The notes beneath the pieces are model-generated. The model was not told the origin of the DNA. It ran no database searches and saw only the letters and a list, made by a program, of their open reading frames with translations. Shown here piece by piece: positions 2,176-47,183 of a stretch of 64,000 bases of DNA (positions are counted from its first letter, which is position 1; every line of letters begins with the position of its first letter). A program made the position numbers and the translations under genes. Source of the DNA: Pirellulales bacterium (GTDB lineage Bacteria > Planctomycetota > Planctomycetia > Pirellulales > PALSA-1355); the NCBI GenBank assembly GCA_963733035.1, contig CAVTBU010000005.1, positions 1,408,001 through 1,472,000 on the forward strand, in the 5' to 3' direction.

Positions 2176-5100
2176 TCAGAAAGAGCCGCTACCGGAACTA
2201 CCGCTGCTACCTGAACTCGTACCGGTGCTGCCGCTAATCAGGTTGAATGTTGTGACATCGCCGACACCAGTGAAAAAGGGCATGGGCGAGACCCGGATGT
2301 ACCGGCGATCCGCCGAAACCACGCCCGACCCCATCAACGTAGCGCCCGAGGGAAGCACGGTAATGACCGGCTGATATCCGACGGCCTGATTGGCGAACGG
2401 AATGCCGAGCTTTCCCGCACGCGAAACACCCAGACGGCCGTTGGCGCCCTGCGAGGAATTTGCCTCTTCGTTGACGAGTTGAGACACGATGGCCTGATTG
2501 ACGGCCAACTGTGTCTGGGCAGCATTCACCAATTGGTGTTCGGCGAGCGGCTCTTTCCGGCGTCCTTCGGGCAAGTCGAACACCATCAAAGCGTCCTGTT
2601 GGCCGAGCGGGATTTGGTCCCGCATGTGTTTTTCTTGTGGTGTGCCGTAGTGTGCATACAGGTCGACCGTGACCTTGCCTGCCGTGATCTTGCCCCACAC
2701 GCGGCGGATCAGCACGCGGTAGGTACCGGCGAAGGCCTCGGGACACTCGTACGTCTCGGTCGTCGATCCTTCAACTCCACTCCGATCGTCGGAACTGCTA
2801 TCGCCCAGCAATACACCGCCGTCGGCAGTGCGCGGGTTTCGGAAAGTGCAGATCGTCCCCGACGGTCCTTCAACCATCAAGTCAACGTCGGCATCGCCGG
2901 TCCAGGTGACTTTGACAATGCAGTCGCGAATGGAAGCCTTGTCGAGTGCCGCTTGGAAACGCTCGGCTTCCTCGTTACGATTTTCGCTCTTCAGTTGGGC
3001 GATGGCCGCGGTGGCGGCACGTTTGGCTTGGCTGACGACTTTTGCCTTATCCTTCGGCCAGGCCTGTTTGAGAATTCCCAGGCTCGACCAGCGAACACCG
3101 TCCATGTCGCCGACCCGCTGGGCCAATTGCAGACCATACAAATACGGCTCGGGCCGCAGGGGCTCGAGCAGGGCAACATGGTGAAACACCTTCAAGGCCC
3201 GCGATTCAAGGCCGCTACGCCCCATGTATTGCGCTGCGTAGAGAAGTTCATCAGTTGAATCGCTGAAATCAACGGCCGACATCAGAGCTCGTTCGATCTC
3301 GCTCCGAGGGCTGCCGGCAGCCTGCATCGCCAGCGACACCGCTTCGTACATCCACGGCTGCGGGTGCCCTTGCCGCAAGGCAGCCCGGATGAGACCCACG
3401 GCGTCATCGAACTTGTGAGCTTGCATGAGCTTCCGAACCGTCGCGCGGACGTCCGCATCGGAAACGTCTTTGTGGCTGTCGAAGTAGTCACTCCAAGCCG
3501 TTTCCGAATCGACACCGGTCGCGATAGCCAGCTCGATCGCGACGGGTTTTTTGGCCGGCTTACGAACGGTCTTAGCAACTGGCTGCGGAACGGGCTTCGC
3601 GGGTGCGGCCGGAGCTTTTGTGGCGGCCGATTGAGTCTTGGACTTGGGTCCGAGCTTGAGGTCATCAGGCACGGCAAACATGCCGCCACCCATGCCACCG
3701 CCCATGCCACCCATGCCACCGCCCATGCCACCTCCCATGCCGCCCATGCCACCTCCCATGCCGCCCATGCCACCTCCCATGCCGCCCATCATGCCACCGC
3801 CCATCATGCCACCGCCCATCATTCCGCCACCCATCGACTGCACGGGAATGACCAGGTCGGCAACGGGATAGGCTTTTGTAACCAGCTCGGTTTCCGCCTT
3901 GTCCTGCGTGGTGATCAAGAGCACTTCATCCTTGATGAGGTATGTCAGGTCGTACTCGCCAAGCAGCAACCGCAAGGCCGACTTGAGCGAGATTCCATTC
4001 ACGTTTCGCGTAACGGGTGTTTCGGAACCAACGCCCGCATCTTCCAAAGCACGATTATCGAGTTGGATTTCAATGTCGTGGTAGTCCTTCAAATAAGCCA
4101 CCGCATCGCTCAGGGGCATTTCGGTGAATTCCATTCGCGTGGGGCTCTCCAGCGCGTCGCGAATCTTCTTCTCGATCGCCGAAACTTTCTTGAGGTCGGT
4201 CGACGTGTACCGTTTTCGGCGTTCGGTCATTTCCTGCCAGAGGTCGGCCGGCGGGTAAACCACCGGTTGATCATCCGGGAACGGCATTAGGGCAACTTCC
4301 ACGGTACCGAGCGTATCGACGACCGCCTTTTGCCGAGCCATCCGCAGCGCCAGGTCCGCCTCACGAGCGCCGGTCATGTGGGCCGTCAAGGCCGCCGATT
4401 GCCCGATCGGCAGATTGGGGTCCAGGCGTGCCACTTCCATCTCGCCAATTTCGTCGGCCGCCACGTAGCGCCCCTCTTCCATCAGCGAATTGAAGCGATC
4501 CATCAACTGCTTGATCTTCTCTTCTTTGCGAATCAAGTTGTTCGCAATCCGCAAACGGTCAAGCGCACCGGCTTGCGCCAATTCGTGCTGCTGTTGGAGA
4601 ATGTCCTTCGTGGCCGACCGGCGGGCCGACTCGCGCAAGGCCGCTTCCAATTGTCCGCGAAGTTGTGCCCGCACCTCGGCCTTCAGTTCCGGCGAGTGAA
4701 CCACGCGACCCAGCAACATCTTGAGGTCGTCCTCGATGGCGGCCGGGTCGGATTCCATACGGGCGCGAGCGGCGCGGAGCGCATCGTCTACTTCCGTGCG
4801 AATCAGGTCGGTCATGAGCCGATTGTGCTGCTCGATATTCTCCAAGAGTCGACCTTCGCCTTCGTTCACCTCATCGACTTCCGGAGTTGCTGGGCCAAGA
4901 ATCTCAGCCGGAGCCGGAGGCGTCGCCAGCCTGGGTGCAGCCGTGGTTGGTGCCGGTGGAGTCGCCTGTTCATTGGAGAACTCCCGGACTTCCAGCCCGT
5001 CCCGGGCCTTCGCGGCAACCGTGCCGCCGGTACGCTGTTTGTCGAGTTGTTTTCGCACCGCCAGGGCGGCTTCATCGTGAGGATCGCGACGCAAGGCTTC

Positions 5101-41237: not shown

Positions 41238-41884
41238 ATGTACGTGCGATTTTCGCAAGCGGCCAGAACCATCATGCAACTCGCAAACAAGGAGGCCACG
41301 CGGTCGAACCATACCAATATCAAGACGATCGACATTCTCGTCGCAATCGTGGCGACGCGGGATGACGTTGGCGCCACGTTGCTCCGCGCGTGGCATCGAC
41401 TCAAGCGAGCTCAGAAGGGAGATAGCAAGGGCTTCGGCCGCTGGCTTAGGGGACGGTACGTCTCGCGCAAAAAGTATTGTTGAAGAGGCGATTAAAGTGG
41501 CGCAAGAACTCAACTATACAGAAGTGGATTCGGCACACTTACTTTTCAGCCTTTTGAACGACCAGACTTCTCTCGCGTGTCGCACACTTGTTGGATTGGG
41601 AGCGAATCTCGACCAATTGCGGTCCGAAATCCTGGAACGTCTTCCACCTGGATCGGCATCTGAACTCGCACACAGGAAATCCTTGGAAGTGCGGCTCCAA
41701 AACCACCCGCGCGCAAGCACTCAAGCAGCGCATCGAACAGTTGCAAGACGGACTTGAAAAGTCTGTGGCAGCGATGACTTTTGAAAGGGCGGCTTCGTAT
41801 CGAGACCAGCGACAGGCATTGGAGAGGACGCTGGAAGAACTCTACGCGGAATTGAATCGAGAGGAGAATGAGAATCGTCGCTAG
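41238..41884 (+). CDS. Clp N-terminal repeat plus UVR coiled-coil protein without an ATPase domain; frameshifts at about 41388 and 41710
   Basis: MYVRFSQAARTIMQLANKEA, second repeat AHLLFSLL, FERAASYRDQ, spread over three frames. Confidence 0.75.
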
Positions 41885-41907
41885 GCTTGAGCCGTGAGGG
41901 GCAGGAA

Positions 41908-41935
41908 AAAAGGGACGCGCATGTGCGTCCACTTT
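41908..41935 (+). terminator. Hairpin after the Clp_N gene
   Basis: AAAG-GGACGC-GCATGT-GCGTCC-ACTTT. Confidence 0.45.
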
Positions 41936-42011
41936 AATTACTCTCAATTCAGCATTCTAGCAGGTCGGACTACTGGCAGCGGTATGGGCGATAGCGGGCG
42001 ATGTTGTCCGA

Positions 42012-42502
42012 CTATGGCCTCGCCCCATCTGGAATATCGTGTTCCGCGATGAACGTTTCCCAGGCATCAGCATCACGCAAAAAGCACCAGACAATCAACT
42101 CCATTGGCTCGGGTTTTTCAAAGTGCGGGGATTCAAAGTCGACATGTGCTGGACATTCCTGGCGCACCAGAAGTTTGGAGAGTTGGTGCGATGCATCAGT
42201 CCCGCTCTTGACATGGCGAAACCGATAATGCAGTTCTCGCACCGCTCCAAGTGCCACAAGCCGCTGGCGGTGATACTTGTACTGATCGTAGCTTTCGCCG
42301 AGTATGTAACCCGCGAGGCCGTCGTGATGTACGTCCGGTGGATTCGCATACGTTTCGGTCCAGGCCCGTCGCATCCGCCACGCATGGTATCGAATTTGAA
42401 CTGGCTGCGAACACACGAAAACAATGACCGCGAGGCAGCACACACCACGAAACTCAGATAGACAAGCCGACGATTGCGTCGAGGATGAGAGGCTTCGCGC
42501 AT
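42012..42502 (-). CDS. Hypothetical membrane-anchored protein; frameshift at about 42442
   Basis: MREASHPRRNRRLVYLSFVV joins CLAVIVFVCSQPVQIRYHAW across a (GT)n run. Confidence 0.5.
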
Positions 42503-42559
42503 GGCAACCATTATAGTGCAGCCGGGGACCCGCAACGACGCTGGCCAGAGTCGAGGCCG

Positions 42560-42740
42560 AATGGGCCACGACTCCCCGATGGTCCGTCTTCAAAAAGTTC
42601 TTCAGCACGAAACAGGCGAACAGTTGATGCTGCGTGAACACTTTGGGACTATTCGGACGCGTGTAGAATGGCAGCACGCGCTGTGCCGCCAACAGCGCCG
42701 TCCGCGCCACCGCCGTCGGAGATTTACTGGTGCGTGCCAC
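42560..42740 (-). mobile_element. Truncated IS transposase N-terminus (IS4/IS5-like remnant)
   Basis: TSKSP..SPKVFTQHQLFACFVLKNFLKTDHRGVVAH resembles planctomycete transposase N-termini; no DDE core. Confidence 0.7.
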
Positions 42741-42905
42741 AAACCCATGACGCACCAAACTGAGCTAGCCGGCTAAGCCAGCAGAGGAGTTTTCTTTGGA
42801 GCCTTCGCGTCGCCTTTAGTTACTCCAAGTAGCCCCCTGCGGCTGTAAGTGAAGTTTGAGCAGAGATTGCCCGTAAGCGAGATCACGACAAAGCCCGGTT
42901 AGCAA

Positions 42906-43370
42906 TTGTCGGGCCTACGGTTGCGCGGACGGCGGGCGTCGGTGCGGAAAATGGGGAGGACGTTATCGGTGAAAAAAGGCGGCTTTCATGTTAAGTCGTT
43001 TCGGTTGAGGACCGAGGACGGGATTATTATACGACGGTTTTTTCGTGAACATCGCAAACTGAAGCTGGCTCAATTGCTTGTATTCCTGGCGACAATGGCA
43101 GCTTTTGTGGCGACCGCGAATTTTATGGCTGCGGTAACGCCCGACCAAGCTCTTGCGGAGTACAAGCAGCCACTACCGGCCGGCTGGACCGCGGGCGTAT
43201 GGAATCACGACCATTATTTCAGGTGGTGGACCATATCCGAACGTCCGATTCTGTTCGGGTTGTCTGTACTCACCCTCGTCATAGGAGTTCTGTTCCTCTG
43301 GAGTTCTCTCGTATTGCTTTGGTGGAAAGCAAGAGCAAGCCAACCACCTCCGATCGGGGGTGAATTGTAG
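42906..43370 (+). CDS. Hypothetical 2-TM protein; stop codon overlaps the intron end
   Basis: Two hydrophobic helices; start uncertain. Confidence 0.55.
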   Translation: MSGLRLRGRRASVRKMGRTLSVKKGGFHVKSFRLRTEDGIIIRRFFREHRKLKLAQLLVFLATMAAFVATANFMAAVTPDQALAEYKQPLPAGWTAGVWNHDHYFRWWTISERPILFGLSVLTLVIGVLFLWSSLVLLWWKARASQPPPIGGEL

Positions 43371-43680
43371 AGTCGAGAAGTGGCGCGGTGGTTTAGGTTG
43401 GGCCTATCTGTTTCCGGCTCTTTCGTTTGCCGCTGCCTCACTTGCCTGACCGTGCTCCGTTTCCACTTCCCGCTCATCGAACCGGACGGGCGGACTTCCC
43501 GCATCCGGCTCTCGGACATGGTGGTCATGCGTTCGCCCACGCGGGACTTTGCCGGAATGCACGCAGTTGGACAGCCCCAATTGCTGGTACAGCTGCGGGT
43601 CGGGAAAGCGCAGGTACCTTCCACGCTGCACCTTGTGTTTCCGCCAAAGCCACTGGCGGAGCCGGCGCGTGATCGCGTTG
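43367..43680 (-). mobile_element. 5'-truncated group II intron (maturase tail plus domains V and VI)
   Basis: DV GAGCCGGATGCGGGAAGTCCGCCCGTCCGGTTC at 43511-43479; 3' end CTCGACTCTAC; upstream RRLRQWLWRKHKV..RFPD..LYQQLGL maturase tail. Confidence 0.92.
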
Positions 43681-43922
43681 ATTCATATAAAACGAAAAGG
43701 TGGTCCAAACACCAACAGTACGGAAAAAGGGACGTCACCTTTGTCTCTTTGACAACTTTGTCCTCTTCGTTTCATCGAACTCCGACCTAGAAACCAGGCC
43801 ACCCTTTCTGGTAGTTTCCCAATGAATCAGCGAGTCGATCGCTGAACACGGTCACCGGGGGTATCCGAAGAGCTCGGCAACACGTGCCTCGCGCCCGTAG
43901 GCACCGGACAACGAGTATCCAG

Positions 43923-43979
43923 AGAGCCCGTATTCGGTGCGCGTCTTGAATGCGCGCACCGATTACGGGCTCTTTTTTT
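43923..43979 (+). terminator. Long intrinsic terminator in the toxin gene leader
   Basis: AGAGCCCGTA-T-TCGGTGCGCG / CGCGCACCGA-T-TACGGGCTCT stem followed by a T run. Confidence 0.8.
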
Positions 43980-44001
43980 GCACCCGTGAAGGGGGACATG
44001 C

Positions 44002-45475
44002 ATGGACAGGTACACAAACGCAACCGAGGTGACAAGTGATTTGCCGCCCAGCGAAGCTTGGCTTTTCGCACAAGCGATTCTCGGCAGGCCGATTTCACGA
44101 ATCGCCCGTCCTGAGGCCAAGACGAACGCCCAGTGCGAAGAACTGGGAAGGCTGGCGCGACTCTCGTGCCGGCATGCCGAGGAGTTGCGAAAGGTGCGAT
44201 CCACGGATGCCAGCGCACGTCACAATCGTGAGCTTCTGGAATGGTCAGCTCTGATCTCGACCGAGGCCCAAGGCAAACTCCGCGCGATCCAACAGATCGA
44301 GGCCCAGGAGGGCAGGGCGTGGCACGCGATCGAGCGATTCGCTGAAGCGGACTCCCCTCTTATCGAATGGAACGAGGCCGATCATCCTCGGGTGCCGAAG
44401 GGAACAGCCACCGGTGGTGAATGGGTTTCCAAGGGTGGCGGTGGGGGAGGATCACGGACGGGCAAGCCACCTTCTCTCCTCGACAAGATCAGGCAGCGCA
44501 ATCGGACGATCTCTAAATTGGGCGGCGTGGTAACGCCGAGCATGATCCGAGCGAATCGCCTCGCCAATGAATTGGAGTCGGCCGCGAAGCTTCCGGGTGA
44601 GGTCGCCCTTGCCGCAGCCGCTGGCCTTGGCACGGGCGGCAAGGCGGTGGTCAATGGCTTTGCAACGGCGGTCAAGGACGTGGCGACACTCGGATTGAGC
44701 CCTGGTCAACTTGAACTCATCGGCGTCACGAAGGAAGACCGAGAACGGGGCTACGACACGGCAGTGTCGATTTCCACGGCGAGTGGACAAATTCTCATCG
44801 CCGTCGGAACCGGCGGAATGGCGTCGGCGCTAAGCAAAGGCGGCTCGGTTGCGCGCTGCCAGTGGTGCCTTGATTGCGTACGACGCAGCAGGCAATGCCG
44901 TGGGCGTCGTCAAGGGCGTTCACGACGCGGCAACTAACGGCATAACCGTGGCCAACGGCGTGCAAGTGGCCGCTGGTGCGCTCGGACTGGGGGCAAACCT
45001 TAAGGCTGCCAAGTCTCTAGCCGCACCCACTTCACCAAATCCACCCAAGAGAAACATTCCGGCAACCAACGTCGATGATTTTGTCGGAAAGCTCCCGCGT
45101 TCATCCACACCCACAAAATCACCGGCGAATCGATATGAAATTAAGCACACCGGCCCTCACAATTACACCGTATCAGGCGGTGGAGCCAAGTTTGACATCG
45201 ACGGATATCGGGGATCGGCGATACTTGAGGCAAAGCATGTCGGCAATGCCGCGAGTAGCCCATATGTGCCCGGGTCGTCGTGTCCGGAATCCGTTCGCGC
45301 CGAAGTCCTAGAAGGCGTATCCGATCAGCTCAAAAGAGTCCGTGCGATCATCGAAAGTGGCTCAACACCTTTCCAGGAGATTGAAATCATTACAAACTCT
45401 CCCGAAGCAAAGAAGTTCTTTGAAGAGCTTCTAAAAAAGGCGGGTGTTCCTGGAAACGTACAACTTAAACCATAG
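44002..45475 (+). CDS. Polymorphic toxin of about 491 aa with C-terminal restriction-endonuclease-fold (Tox-REase-2-like) domain; frameshift at about 44853
   Basis: WNEADHPR..GGEW motif, Gly/Ala hydrophobic middle, C-terminal YEI..G..DIDG..ILEAK..SPY..IEIITN..G. Confidence 0.8.
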
Positions 45476-45489
45476 GAGCGTTGATTTTA

Positions 45490-45852
45490 ATGCATAATGT
45501 GTTACTGATGAATCCCGACGGCGACACATTTGATATCAAAGCAATTGCACGAATACTGGGGCCGGGGAATGGGTTTCGCGACGTGCGATTCGATGAGCCA
45601 GGAGGAGCTCTCATTGAGGCCGAATACATTGAGCCAGGAGGCCGGACAATTGTACGTCTCAGTGGAAGTTGTAAGAGCATTTCCTTCTCTGGAACGTCAG
45701 ATTGCGCCTTCCGCGCCGCGTTGATTCTGCAAAGGCAACTCGACATGCCACTCCGAATGGTCGATACAGACTATTCGTTTGATCTCATTCTTGACGGCGT
45801 TTCGAACGTTGAGGAGTTGCGGGCAGCGATTGAAAAAGGCCGAACGAGCTGA
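45490..45852 (+). CDS. Probable cognate immunity protein
   Basis: 120-aa ORF with AGGAG RBS overlapping the toxin stop, same strand; function inferred from position. Confidence 0.7.
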   Translation: MHNVLLMNPDGDTFDIKAIARILGPGNGFRDVRFDEPGGALIEAEYIEPGGRTIVRLSGSCKSISFSGTSDCAFRAALILQRQLDMPLRMVDTDYSFDLILDGVSNVEELRAAIEKGRTS

Positions 45853-45996: not shown

Positions 45997-47183
45997 TCAA
46001 TCGCCCTGGCGGATCCAGGCTTCGTTGAAGGCGGCGTGTTTGATGCCCTTGAGGGTCGGAGGGGGTTGACCGTCGGCCGTGGTGCTTGCTTCGGGGGCGA
46101 TGAAGCAACTGTAGATGGCGTGGATCGTGCCGCCCTGGCCTTGGATAATCGCAGGGTAGTGGTAGCGGCCCTCGGCGTGCTTTTCCAGATGGCGGGTCGA
46201 GGTCCAGCTGCGGCCTTCGTCGGTGGAAATCGACACCGCCAACACGGCGCGGCTGTCTGTGTCGTCGTTATAAGCGAGCACCCAATGACCGTTGGCCAGG
46301 CGAACTCCGTCGATGCCGCTACCGGGATTCGGGAGCGAGCTGTCGCCGACCGGACTCCAGGTCAGGCCGTCGTCCTTCGATTCGGAAACGCGAATGCAAG
46401 CCCGGGGGCCGTTCTCGCGCATGTAGGCCACCAGCACGCCGTCGTTGCGTCGCAACACGGTCGGCTGAATGTTGCCGAAGCCGATCAACGGTTGGCTGGC
46501 ATACCAGGTGCGGCCCTCGTCGTCGCTGATCGCCATGATCGAAATGGCAAACGTGTCGGTATAGAGCGGCAGCAAGATCCGACCGCTGGGCAAAACGGTT
46601 GGCTTGCAGCGCGGCGCCCAACCGAGCCGCTGGTAGAGCGTGTCGTCGAGCTTGCGCACTGTTCGTCAGGACCGCCCTTGGCGCCGCGCGGCGGGCGCAG
46701 CTTGCGATCGCCCAGCAATTTGAGCGCCTCGTCGCGAAAGTTGGCGGGCTTAAGCAGGATGATCGACTCGCGATCCCATTTCGGCGCTCCGGGCTGGTCG
46801 TAGTCGGTCGAAGTCCGATAGTTCATCAAGCAGCTTTCCCACGAGTCTCCGATGACCGTGGGCCAGAACAGCCATAGCCGCCTCTTGCCGTCGATCATCA
46901 TGCAGGTGTTGCAATCGGGAAAGCCGGGTCGGTCGGCCATCATGAACGGTTTACTCCAGGCGCTTTCGCCTTTCCTCTTGCGGGCGCCCAGTATGCCGGC
47001 GTCGGACTCGGGCCCTTCGCTACCGCCGTACCATGAGGCGAGGAGATCGCCATTGGCGGTTTCGACGATGCCCGGCGCGTGCGTTTGAGGCTCAACGGGT
47101 TGAAAGATTTGTTCCGCCTCGTAGAACGGCACTTCGTCAGCCGCGGCAAAACTGACGAGCGCAAGGCAAAGCAGCAGGTTCAT
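45997..47183 (-). CDS. Exported BNR/Asp-box sialidase-like protein; frameshift at about 46658
   Basis: Signal peptide; Asp boxes SDDEGRTW, SKDDGLTW, STDEGRSW; YHYP. Confidence 0.85.

Follow-up and report, generated by a model that had tools for sequence, protein, structure and literature searches.

We analysed a stretch of 64,000 nucleotides (hereafter the window) from contig CAVTBU010000005.1 of a Pirellulales bacterium, in which three open reading frames (ORFs), namely ORF A, ORF B and ORF C, lie head to tail on the + strand. We consider it likely that this locus is one copy, broken by a loss of 2 nt, of a lineage-restricted planctomycete polymorphic toxin family with an attenuating leader RNA. 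The full protein would be composed of a helical N-terminal domain, a Gly/Ala-rich middle module and a PD-(D/E)xK nuclease tip. A preliminary description, made from the letters of the DNA, had read the locus as a polymorphic toxin-immunity pair with an unrecognised delivery N-terminus. The exchangeable tips and tip-specific downstream genes reported below support this interpretation, but the description had not weighed the possibility that the window copy is a pseudogene.

One gene in two frames, with exchangeable modules

Comparison with intact relatives indicates that ORF A and ORF B are two frames of one gene. P0017, an intact relative of 488 aa, matches residues 1-285 of ORF A with its residues 1-288 (67% identity, E 8e-123) and frame B, translated from 44855, with its residues 290-486 (62% identity, E 3e-88), and the intact relatives that are colinear with the joined frames are 479-488 aa long. 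Frame B is open from 44834, which locates the frame change between 44834 and ~44860, and a GCGCGC run is present at 44851-44856. At the homologous site, 8 distinct relatives encode KGG[ST][VI]AR[TA]A[SG]GAL in an uninterrupted single frame. Since the window reads GCG CGC, then T GCC AGT, two bases of the [TA] codon are missing. Restoration of 2 nt gives 285+1+205 = 491 aa. The joining of the two ORFs at the GCGCGC run into a protein of about 491 aa, as put forward in the preliminary description, thus holds by colinearity with the intact relatives, and both motifs quoted there, WNEADHPRVPKGTATGGEWVSKGGGG (residues 123-148) and DIDGYRGSAILEAKH, were found. ORF C most likely starts at the ATG at 45490, since the resulting 120 aa is the length of its homologs, the TTG at 45481 being the alternative; this agrees with the 120-aa ORF reported earlier directly behind the toxin gene. 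The features of the locus are listed in Table 1.

Table 1. Features of the toxin locus and its leader RNA; positions refer to the window unless a locus is named.
Feature	Position	Strand	Remarks
Promoter-like block upstream of leader (by eye, putative)	43786..43818	+	TAGAAA, 18 nt, TAGTTT; relatives TTGAAA ... TAnnTT
Structured 5' leader RNA	43817..43991	+	Covariance model 134.4 bits, E 4.7e-33; hairpins P1, P2, P3, terminator
Terminator hairpin (43921-43975) and 7-T run (43973-43979)	43921..43979	+	Ends 22 nt before ATG
ORF A	44002-44937	+	311 aa
N-terminal family domain, residues 1-155	44002..44466	+	Conserved PPSEAWLFAQAILG, two helical repeats, HPR motif (44368-44445), Gly-rich linker
Gly/Ala-rich middle module, 'mid 0' type	44467..45058	+	Interrupted by frameshift; colinear with P0017, P0016, P0013
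ORF B	44849-45475	+	208 aa, frame +1
Frameshift site	44851..44857	+	Two bases missing after GCGCGC
Out-of-frame tail of ORF A	44857..44937	+	26 residues then stop; no counterpart in P0017
C-terminal tip, Tox-REase-2 type	45059..45475	+	Frame B; E, DG, EAK, TN residues intact
ORF C, from TTG	45481-45852	+	123 aa
ORF C, from ATG at 45490	45490..45852	+	120 aa; candidate cognate immunity protein
Further leader copy in own genome	L002 1985-2167	-	Covariance model
Further leader copy in own genome	L003 1284-1463	+	Covariance model

The modular nature of the family was evident among its 35 members of at least 380 aa, which fell into 15 clusters by C-terminal tip and 9 by middle region, freely combined with each other. 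Middle type 0 bears tips 0, 1, 2 and 13, and middle type 1 bears tips 0, 1, 2 and 3. Gly and Ala together make up 32-36% of the middle module of relatives. Pfam names the tip as Tox-REase-2 in P0010 (29.2 bits), WHH in P0029 (31.2), AHH in P0040 (48.1) and DddA-like deaminase in L018 (60.7), and also an HNH-like tip; most tips are without a family. Conservation of neighbours between loci is limited to small genes that are specific to the tip, and a SUKH-type gene cluster stands behind other tips in 5 loci. Homologs therefore keep the N-terminus while tips and downstream genes are swapped, as was anticipated. By sequence comparison, the layout is that of a polymorphic toxin system as defined by Zhang, de Souza, Anantharaman, Iyer and Aravind (2012, PMC3482391).

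The N-terminal domain and its distribution

The N-terminal domain carries a strongly conserved PPSEAWLFAQAILGKPIP close to its start. This is followed by two helical repeats of ~40 residues each (three in P0136 and P0116), and the domain closes with EW[ND]xx[DK]HPRxxxGxxxGGxW/F together with a Gly-rich linker. With residues 1-160 as query, 55 database proteins of 171-545 aa were retrieved (E<=1e-3). Out of 1.84 billion representative clusters, a three-sequence hidden Markov model (HMM) of the domain matched 324, of which 167 reached E<=1e-10 and 40 reached E<=1e-30; in these matches the domain is always N-terminal.

The window's own genome carries four copies, in the window and at L002, L003 and L004. 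L002 has the same tip and ORF C as the window and is decayed; L003 is intact (465 aa) with an unnamed tip; and L004 has an in-frame stop, with a SUKH immunity gene behind. L002 and L003 are only ~11 kb apart on contig 6. A tRNA gene (31.8 bits; L002 2287-2376, +) and a YbjN-family gene (2565-3215, +) lie just upstream of the L002 toxin.

In one-genome-per-species collections, 24 of 26 loci came from genomes labelled Planctomycetia, Pirellulales or Planctomycetaceae. A sample of 301 genomes from the order contained 36 with the domain, at 1-8 matches per genome, and a sample of 400 other genomes from across the phylum contained none. When broken down by taxonomic family, the domain was present in 25 of 32 genomes of the window's own family, in 4/6, 4/18 and 2/12 genomes of three others, and in none of 26 further families. 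The toxin family is confined to a small number of planctomycete lineages.

The structure model of the domain is all-helical, with helices at residues 18-27, 37-52, 56-85 and 87-115 (predicted local distance difference test, pLDDT, 69.7; predicted template modelling score 0.43), in keeping with the helical N-terminus first proposed. Neither sequence nor fold searches gave it a name: there was no match in Pfam, NCBIfam, PADLOC or PHROGs, nothing below E 0.2 by sequence in PDB, no match at E<=0.001 in Foldseek against PDB (best E 1.9), only generic helical hairpins in VIA (best Z 5.4), a best E of 0.7 in BFVD and a best match of 0.87, to an unnamed cluster, in the ESM Atlas. DUF6003 was matched on the N-terminus of three relatives at 16.9-20.3 bits against a cut-off of 35.4 and was judged a chance match. 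ORF A matches no Pfam family at E<=1, and hence has no RHS, PAAR, LXG, WXG100 or MuF domain; likewise, none of the RHS, PAAR, LXG, WXG100, MuF and VENN families was detected in 54 family proteins scanned with Pfam at E<=0.01. A distant member, P0136, carries PT-HINT. The N-terminus is thus as unrecognised, and as free of these delivery domains, as the preliminary description had it. Among the results of a literature search, no paper described the toxin family in its title or abstract.

The C-terminal tip and the candidate immunity gene

Through its relatives, the window tip is assigned by sequence homology to the Tox-REase-2 lineage. The match of the window tip itself to Pfam Tox-REase-2 (PF15646) is weak and full-length (17.6 bits, E 0.0045, profile 2-129 of 129), and relatives with 58-69% identity clear the gathering cut-off of 27.6 bits (P0010 29.2, P0193 28.0, P0194 28.5 bits). 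A profile of six tips retrieved 89 longer proteins, and 9 of the 14 scanned pass the Tox-REase-2 cut-off, distant matches of this profile reaching 44-55 bits. The same tip is present on other chassis, i.e. with PT-HINT (55.4 bits), prePAAR-PAAR (51.4 bits) and LysM (28.3 bits), and one further tip-bearing protein is named RHS-associated by its source. All six tips, that of the window among them, share E27, D48-G49, E57-A58-K59 and T112-N113 without variation, which fits the published signature; the signature given for Tox-REase-2 in the table of PMC3482391 is E, DG, [DE]xK, T and W.

Several observations weigh against this assignment. The window tip stays below the gathering cut-off and, at 17.6 bits against 27.6, is not a member of Tox-REase-2 by the Pfam rule, its membership being transitive only; the resemblance noted in the preliminary description therefore stands for the lineage and not for the window tip by its own score. 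The signature residues are present in all six tips, but the final aromatic residue is F121 and not W. The mean pLDDT of the middle and tip model was 47.2, too low for a judgement on the tip fold, and a fold search with it returned only helical-hairpin rows (Z<=6). In a PDB sequence search the tip had no solved relative and only weak Csm5 rows. The weak similarity (e.g. P0010 338-425) to Csm5/Csm3 RAMP proteins, with E 0.0016 in PDB and 5.6e-4 in PADLOC, is recurrent and centres on PYVPGSS. Beyond these weak Csm5/Csm3 rows the tip had no match in PADLOC, and it had none in PHROGs.

The tip and ORF C have a G+C of 0.50 as compared to ~0.63 in the rest of the gene, as expected of an exchanged, presumably horizontally acquired, cassette. 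The family of ORF C has 163 members, almost all of them 120 aa long, and bears no Pfam domain or name. Homologs of ORF C follow the same tip in 6 loci (among them L002, L007, L014, L024 and L026). Over six cognate pairs, the identities of tip and ORF C were correlated (r 0.92), a value reached by 1 of 720 permutations; this correlation lends weak support because linked genes share history. ORF C diverges faster than the tip (38-75% as against 54-79% identity). A PDB sequence search with ORF C returned nothing, and its nearest ESM Atlas clusters are unnamed (0.93-0.95), the named clusters, CDI immunity (0.81) and SitI3-like (0.79), being leads only. Four tandem ORF C homologs (120-133 aa) stand behind one REase-2 toxin gene at L014 5361-7321 (+), forming a poly-immunity array.

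From its position and its association with the tip, ORF C is a candidate cognate immunity protein. The table of PMC3482391 gives the range of Tox-REase-2 as Actinobacteria only and lists no immunity protein. Our literature search, which had most subscription journals outside its reach, found Tox-REase-2 named in no further paper. With the ORF C family, Tox-REase-2 toxins would have a candidate immunity family for the first time.

A structured leader RNA precedes the toxin genes

The leader upstream of ORF A is ~175 nt long and is laid out as P1, P2 and P3, the last of which has an asymmetric internal loop that is invariant and an apical insert that varies, and then a terminator. This final hairpin of ~20 bp with 6-8 T ends 10-25 nt before a Shine-Dalgarno-like GAAGAGG box and the start codon. 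The minimum free energy of the window leader is -82.3 kcal/mol (z -6.11, 200 shuffles). In a plain MAFFT alignment of 21 leaders, 93.1% of cells pair as compared to 33-46% with slid partners, and 9 pairs show compensatory changes, a number reached by 15 of 500 shuffles. Among 58 distinct model-aligned rows, compensatory changes were seen in 28 of 41 pairs against 13.7 ± 2.1 in shuffles (0 of 500 shuffles reached this); the pairs include three of upper P3, and helices 5-7, which form the terminator, also carry such changes.

Some features of these data tell against the leader reading. The 58-row alignment was fitted to the model, which weakens its compensatory count, and ~15 reverse-strand terminator rows in it inflate helices 5-7. 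The lower stem of P3 hardly varies, so covariation there says little. Simple consensus scans called neither the leader promoter nor the terminator, and the promoter-like block in Table 1 is a putative assignment since it is conserved in the alignment but not called by the consensus scan.

Of 28 family loci, 24 have the leader, and it is carried by 28 of 33 genomes from the taxonomic family, as compared to only 3 of the 151 that were sampled over the class. The own genome has exactly three leaders, each before one of the three less decayed paralogs. Downstream of 26 strong leaders, some of which duplicate earlier loci, the N-terminal domain follows directly in 23, and the remainder consist of one decayed member, one contig end and one gene with another N-terminus. 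The leader also precedes genes that have a differing N-terminus or the HPR part only, at L058 (G773:C31) and at G778:C4 around 2498096-2499983, and so serves toxin genes beyond those with the family domain. Weak relatives consisting of P3 and terminator were detected in two genomes of another family (L037 1501-1636, +, 47.6 bits; L038 1501-1642, +, 36.3 bits), upstream of two small ORFs and a subtilase (Peptidase_S8) gene; these show compensatory change in P3. No Rfam 15 family was matched at E<=1 by the leader when L001-L004 were scanned.

The leader is better conserved than the protein, the upstream DNA of L003 being ~83% identical as against 32-38% for the protein. The same observation would suit an element other than a regulatory leader, either the terminus of a mobile cassette or a free-standing small RNA gene beside the toxin, as would the group II intron fragment and low-GC DNA just upstream and the tRNA gene adjoining L002. 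On the other hand, compensatory changes keep four helices, the orientation is constant and the element ends 10-25 nt before GAAGAGG and ATG, its end is a hairpin with a T-run like that of an RNA terminator, and no repeat of the element is found on the far side of the genes. We therefore hold a cassette end or separate small RNA gene to be quite improbable.

A regulatory leader is most likely a transcription-attenuation element, a switch that we infer from this structure and that would make toxin synthesis conditional. With a strong terminator 22 nt before the start codon, conditional read-through is most likely needed for toxin synthesis. In several leaders folded after truncation ahead of the 3' terminator arm, a pairing is predicted between GGGG in P3 and CCC in the 5' arm, which suggests a possible antiterminator. 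The leader is a well-supported, unnamed structured RNA which apparently gates toxin expression. We know of no attenuation leader that controls polymorphic toxin genes, although no literature search was aimed at one.

State of the window copy

The window copy is broken by the 2-nt loss and may be a pseudogene. Its leader has an 11-nt deletion in P2, by which the 3' half is gone and which is absent from the other 20 rows of the leader alignment; with the leader lacking half of P2 and the gene frame-broken, this copy may be dead, which counts against an active toxin locus here. Decay is common in the family. By our own reading of open-frame lengths, ~11 out of 24 loci of the family in other genomes are interrupted, each at its own position. 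Paralog L002 lacks ~50 residues between P0010 positions 203 and 287 and has a frame change in addition, and paralog L004 has an in-frame TAG.

It is possible, though we give it less than even credence, that the frameshift is an assembly or base-calling error, in which case the gene of the organism would be intact and would encode the full 491-aa toxin. The lesion is a single one, the catalytic residues are preserved, and elsewhere the gene stays colinear with its intact relatives (62-67% identity). At 1 kb downstream, the BNR_2 gene is likewise divided between two frames, near CGCGCGG, which could reflect a systematic error at GC-rich repeats, and the 92.28% completeness of the genome, which is in 10 contigs, would fit scattered indel errors, this being a hint only. 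What speaks for true decay is that it is frequent among copies of the family, the paralogs L002 and L004 included, that the ~11 of 24 loci elsewhere come from several assemblies and are truncated at differing places, and that the P2 deletion of the window leader is unlike the other 20 copies. Reads from soil metagenomes did not reach the site: short identical contigs from four runs cover only 44300-44546 and 45028-45326, outside the region of the frameshift (44840-44893). Five soil-metagenome runs were matched with small shares (<=0.10), none of which was RNA.

The position of the shift at a short dinucleotide run, (GC)3, is a slippage-prone context and could point to a programmed frameshift or a phase-variation switch for production of the tip. 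This is extremely improbable: the 8 relatives lack a GC run at the homologous site and pass it without a change of frame, other family loci break at other positions, and three repeat units are few for phase variation. Programmed frameshifting was rejected on the grounds that relatives read straight across the site and break elsewhere.

If the 2-nt loss is real, the window would yield a 311-aa tipless protein and ORF C would persist as an orphan immunity gene. The window copy is probably inactive and ordinary as a gene, and the interest lies in the family and its leader.

The HPR motif and phage polyvalent proteins

Planctomycete proteins have a single HPR motif, which lies where the N-terminal domain ends. 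The motif region matches 5-8 times in giant proteins of 1242-2534 aa (P0147, P0173, P0177, P0178, P0188), three of which carry Phage_Mu_F, Acb1, LPD1, ART-PolyVal or Fic domains by Pfam; in P0173 the motif is placed between successive domains. From these domains, we infer that the giant proteins are phage- or plasmid-borne polyvalent proteins. The motif was not met in a term search of the available text of Zhang 2012 (PMC3482391), Iyer 2017 (PMC5512222) and Jamet 2017 (PMC5576092). Its function may lie in processing, or in loading or docking. The HPR peptide forms a link between bacterial toxins and phage-packaged polyvalent proteins.

Proposed mode of action and possible export

In the mechanism that we favour, read-through of the leader would be set off by some signal, ligand or protein, the N-terminal domain and HPR motif would serve export, docking or processing, and the Gly/Ala-rich middle module would aid membrane passage. 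The tip would then cut DNA in the competitor cell, and ORF C would bind and block the tip in the producer.

The points that bear against export should be set out together. Neither export machinery nor a conserved partner gene was found, and the term 'exported toxin' is therefore used by analogy. VipB, Phage_sheath_1, WXG100 and PAAR were not found in the genome (92% complete). Three relatives have no signal-peptide-like start, the hydropathy maximum over the first 40 residues being 0.7-0.93, in agreement with the absence of a signal peptide stated earlier. What speaks for the undescribed trafficking route proposed in the preliminary description is a set of absences (of a signal peptide, of markers of type VI secretion, extracellular contractile injection and type VII secretion systems, and of a conserved neighbour), and we do not retain it as a result. 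What the family offers is a new N-terminal module without a known export system, in genomes lacking the usual machines.

The lack of a signal peptide and of secretion markers in the genome would equally suit a family that acts inside the cell as a toxin-antitoxin or abortive-infection system, in which the N-terminal domain inhibits the toxin until it is cut at the HPR motif, e.g. by a phage protease. The repeated HPR motif of the giant Phage_Mu_F, Acb1, LPD1, ART-PolyVal or Fic proteins and the tight gating of expression by the terminator leader also accord with this. We consider such an intracellular role rather unlikely, since the same tip is borne by prePAAR-PAAR, PT-HINT and LysM proteins and by a protein labelled RHS-associated in its source, which are secreted-toxin architectures, and PADLOC gave only weak Csm5 rows and PHROGs none. 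Furthermore, the four tandem immunity paralogs of L014 and the SUKH genes are hallmarks of inter-bacterial conflict in the available text of PMC3482391.

Release by lysis of a producer subpopulation deserves mention too, the toxins then being bacteriocins like colicins or S-pyocins with the middle module for uptake. Nuclease colicins and S-type pyocins have a C-terminal nuclease, an adjacent and tightly bound immunity protein, no signal peptide and conditional expression, colicins being under SOS-box control. The three-part layout with the immunity gene immediately behind, the absence of a signal peptide and of secretion genes, and the conditional expression implied by the leader terminator would all fit. 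There is, however, no lysis gene behind the immunity gene, the next gene being on the opposite strand, and no Pfam colicin or pyocin domain was found except for a weak Colicin-DNase in P0043 (18.2 bits). Lysis-released bacteriocins are therefore an unlikely account, and a polymorphic toxin aimed at competitor cells remains our preferred reading.

A bolder proposal would be that this planctomycete clade has its own route of toxin delivery or release, built on the helical domain and an HPR tag common to capsid-packaged polyvalent proteins, together with a new ligand- or protein-sensing class of RNA leader for polymorphic toxin genes. We regard it as doubtful, though worth stating. To our knowledge, the inter-bacterial weapons of planctomycetes are little studied.

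Genomic surroundings

The Pfam-scanned neighbours comprise PSD1/PSCyt, DUF1501, Clp_N, BNR_2, alpha/beta hydrolase, GFO_IDH_MocA and AhpC/TSA genes. None is a secretion gene, so that the earlier statement of no secretion genes nearby is upheld. The BNR_2 (sialidase-like) gene at 45997-47183 (-) is spread over two ORFs that overlap and differ in frame (profile 1-90 and 113-276); with its break near CGCGCGG, it is a second frame-broken gene less than 1 kb from the toxin break. An Rfam group II intron match (domains V/VI) lies at 43367-43513 (-), with 39.5 bits against a gathering value of 40 (E 6.5e-5), and is probably a fragment because a whole intron has too little room before the leader. G+C is 0.53-0.58 upstream (41250-43750) and 0.50 in 45000-45750, the surroundings being 0.61-0.65. 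The ORFs of the low-GC stretch upstream had no Pfam matches. For one of them, at 42012-42758 (-), the reading as a possible transposase fragment was dropped for want of a Pfam match.

Comparison with known systems

Like colicins and S-pyocins, the toxins described here are modular proteins with a C-terminal nuclease, an immunity gene alongside and no signal peptide. They differ in having no sequence or family match to them and no lysis gene, and in their regulation, which apparently runs through a terminator-containing RNA leader. With MuF polymorphic toxins and the polyvalent proteins of phages and plasmids they share the short HPR motif, but the planctomycete proteins are without a MuF domain and without a PHROGs match, and they have a single motif whereas the polyvalent proteins repeat it 5-8 times between domains.

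The leader resembles attenuation leaders and riboswitches in being a multi-helix RNA before a coding region, with a hairpin and U-run, an invariant internal loop and covarying stems. In contrast to these, the planctomycete leader falls in no Rfam family at E<=1.

There is a close likeness to the polymorphic toxins of PMC3482391, as far as its available text goes: a conserved N-terminus, recombining tips, an adjacent immunity gene, immunity arrays and a deviating G+C of the tip are common to both. The planctomycete N-terminal domain differs in being in no library and without link to a known secretion system. Tox-REase-2, confined to Actinobacteria in the table of that paper, is here found in Planctomycetia together with a candidate immunity family. 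The planctomycete family also goes beyond the layout given there by a second exchangeable module, in the middle, and by the RNA leader. The kind of system is thus known, and what is new is the N-terminal family, the candidate immunity family for Tox-REase-2, the HPR link to polyvalent proteins and, above all, the RNA leader.

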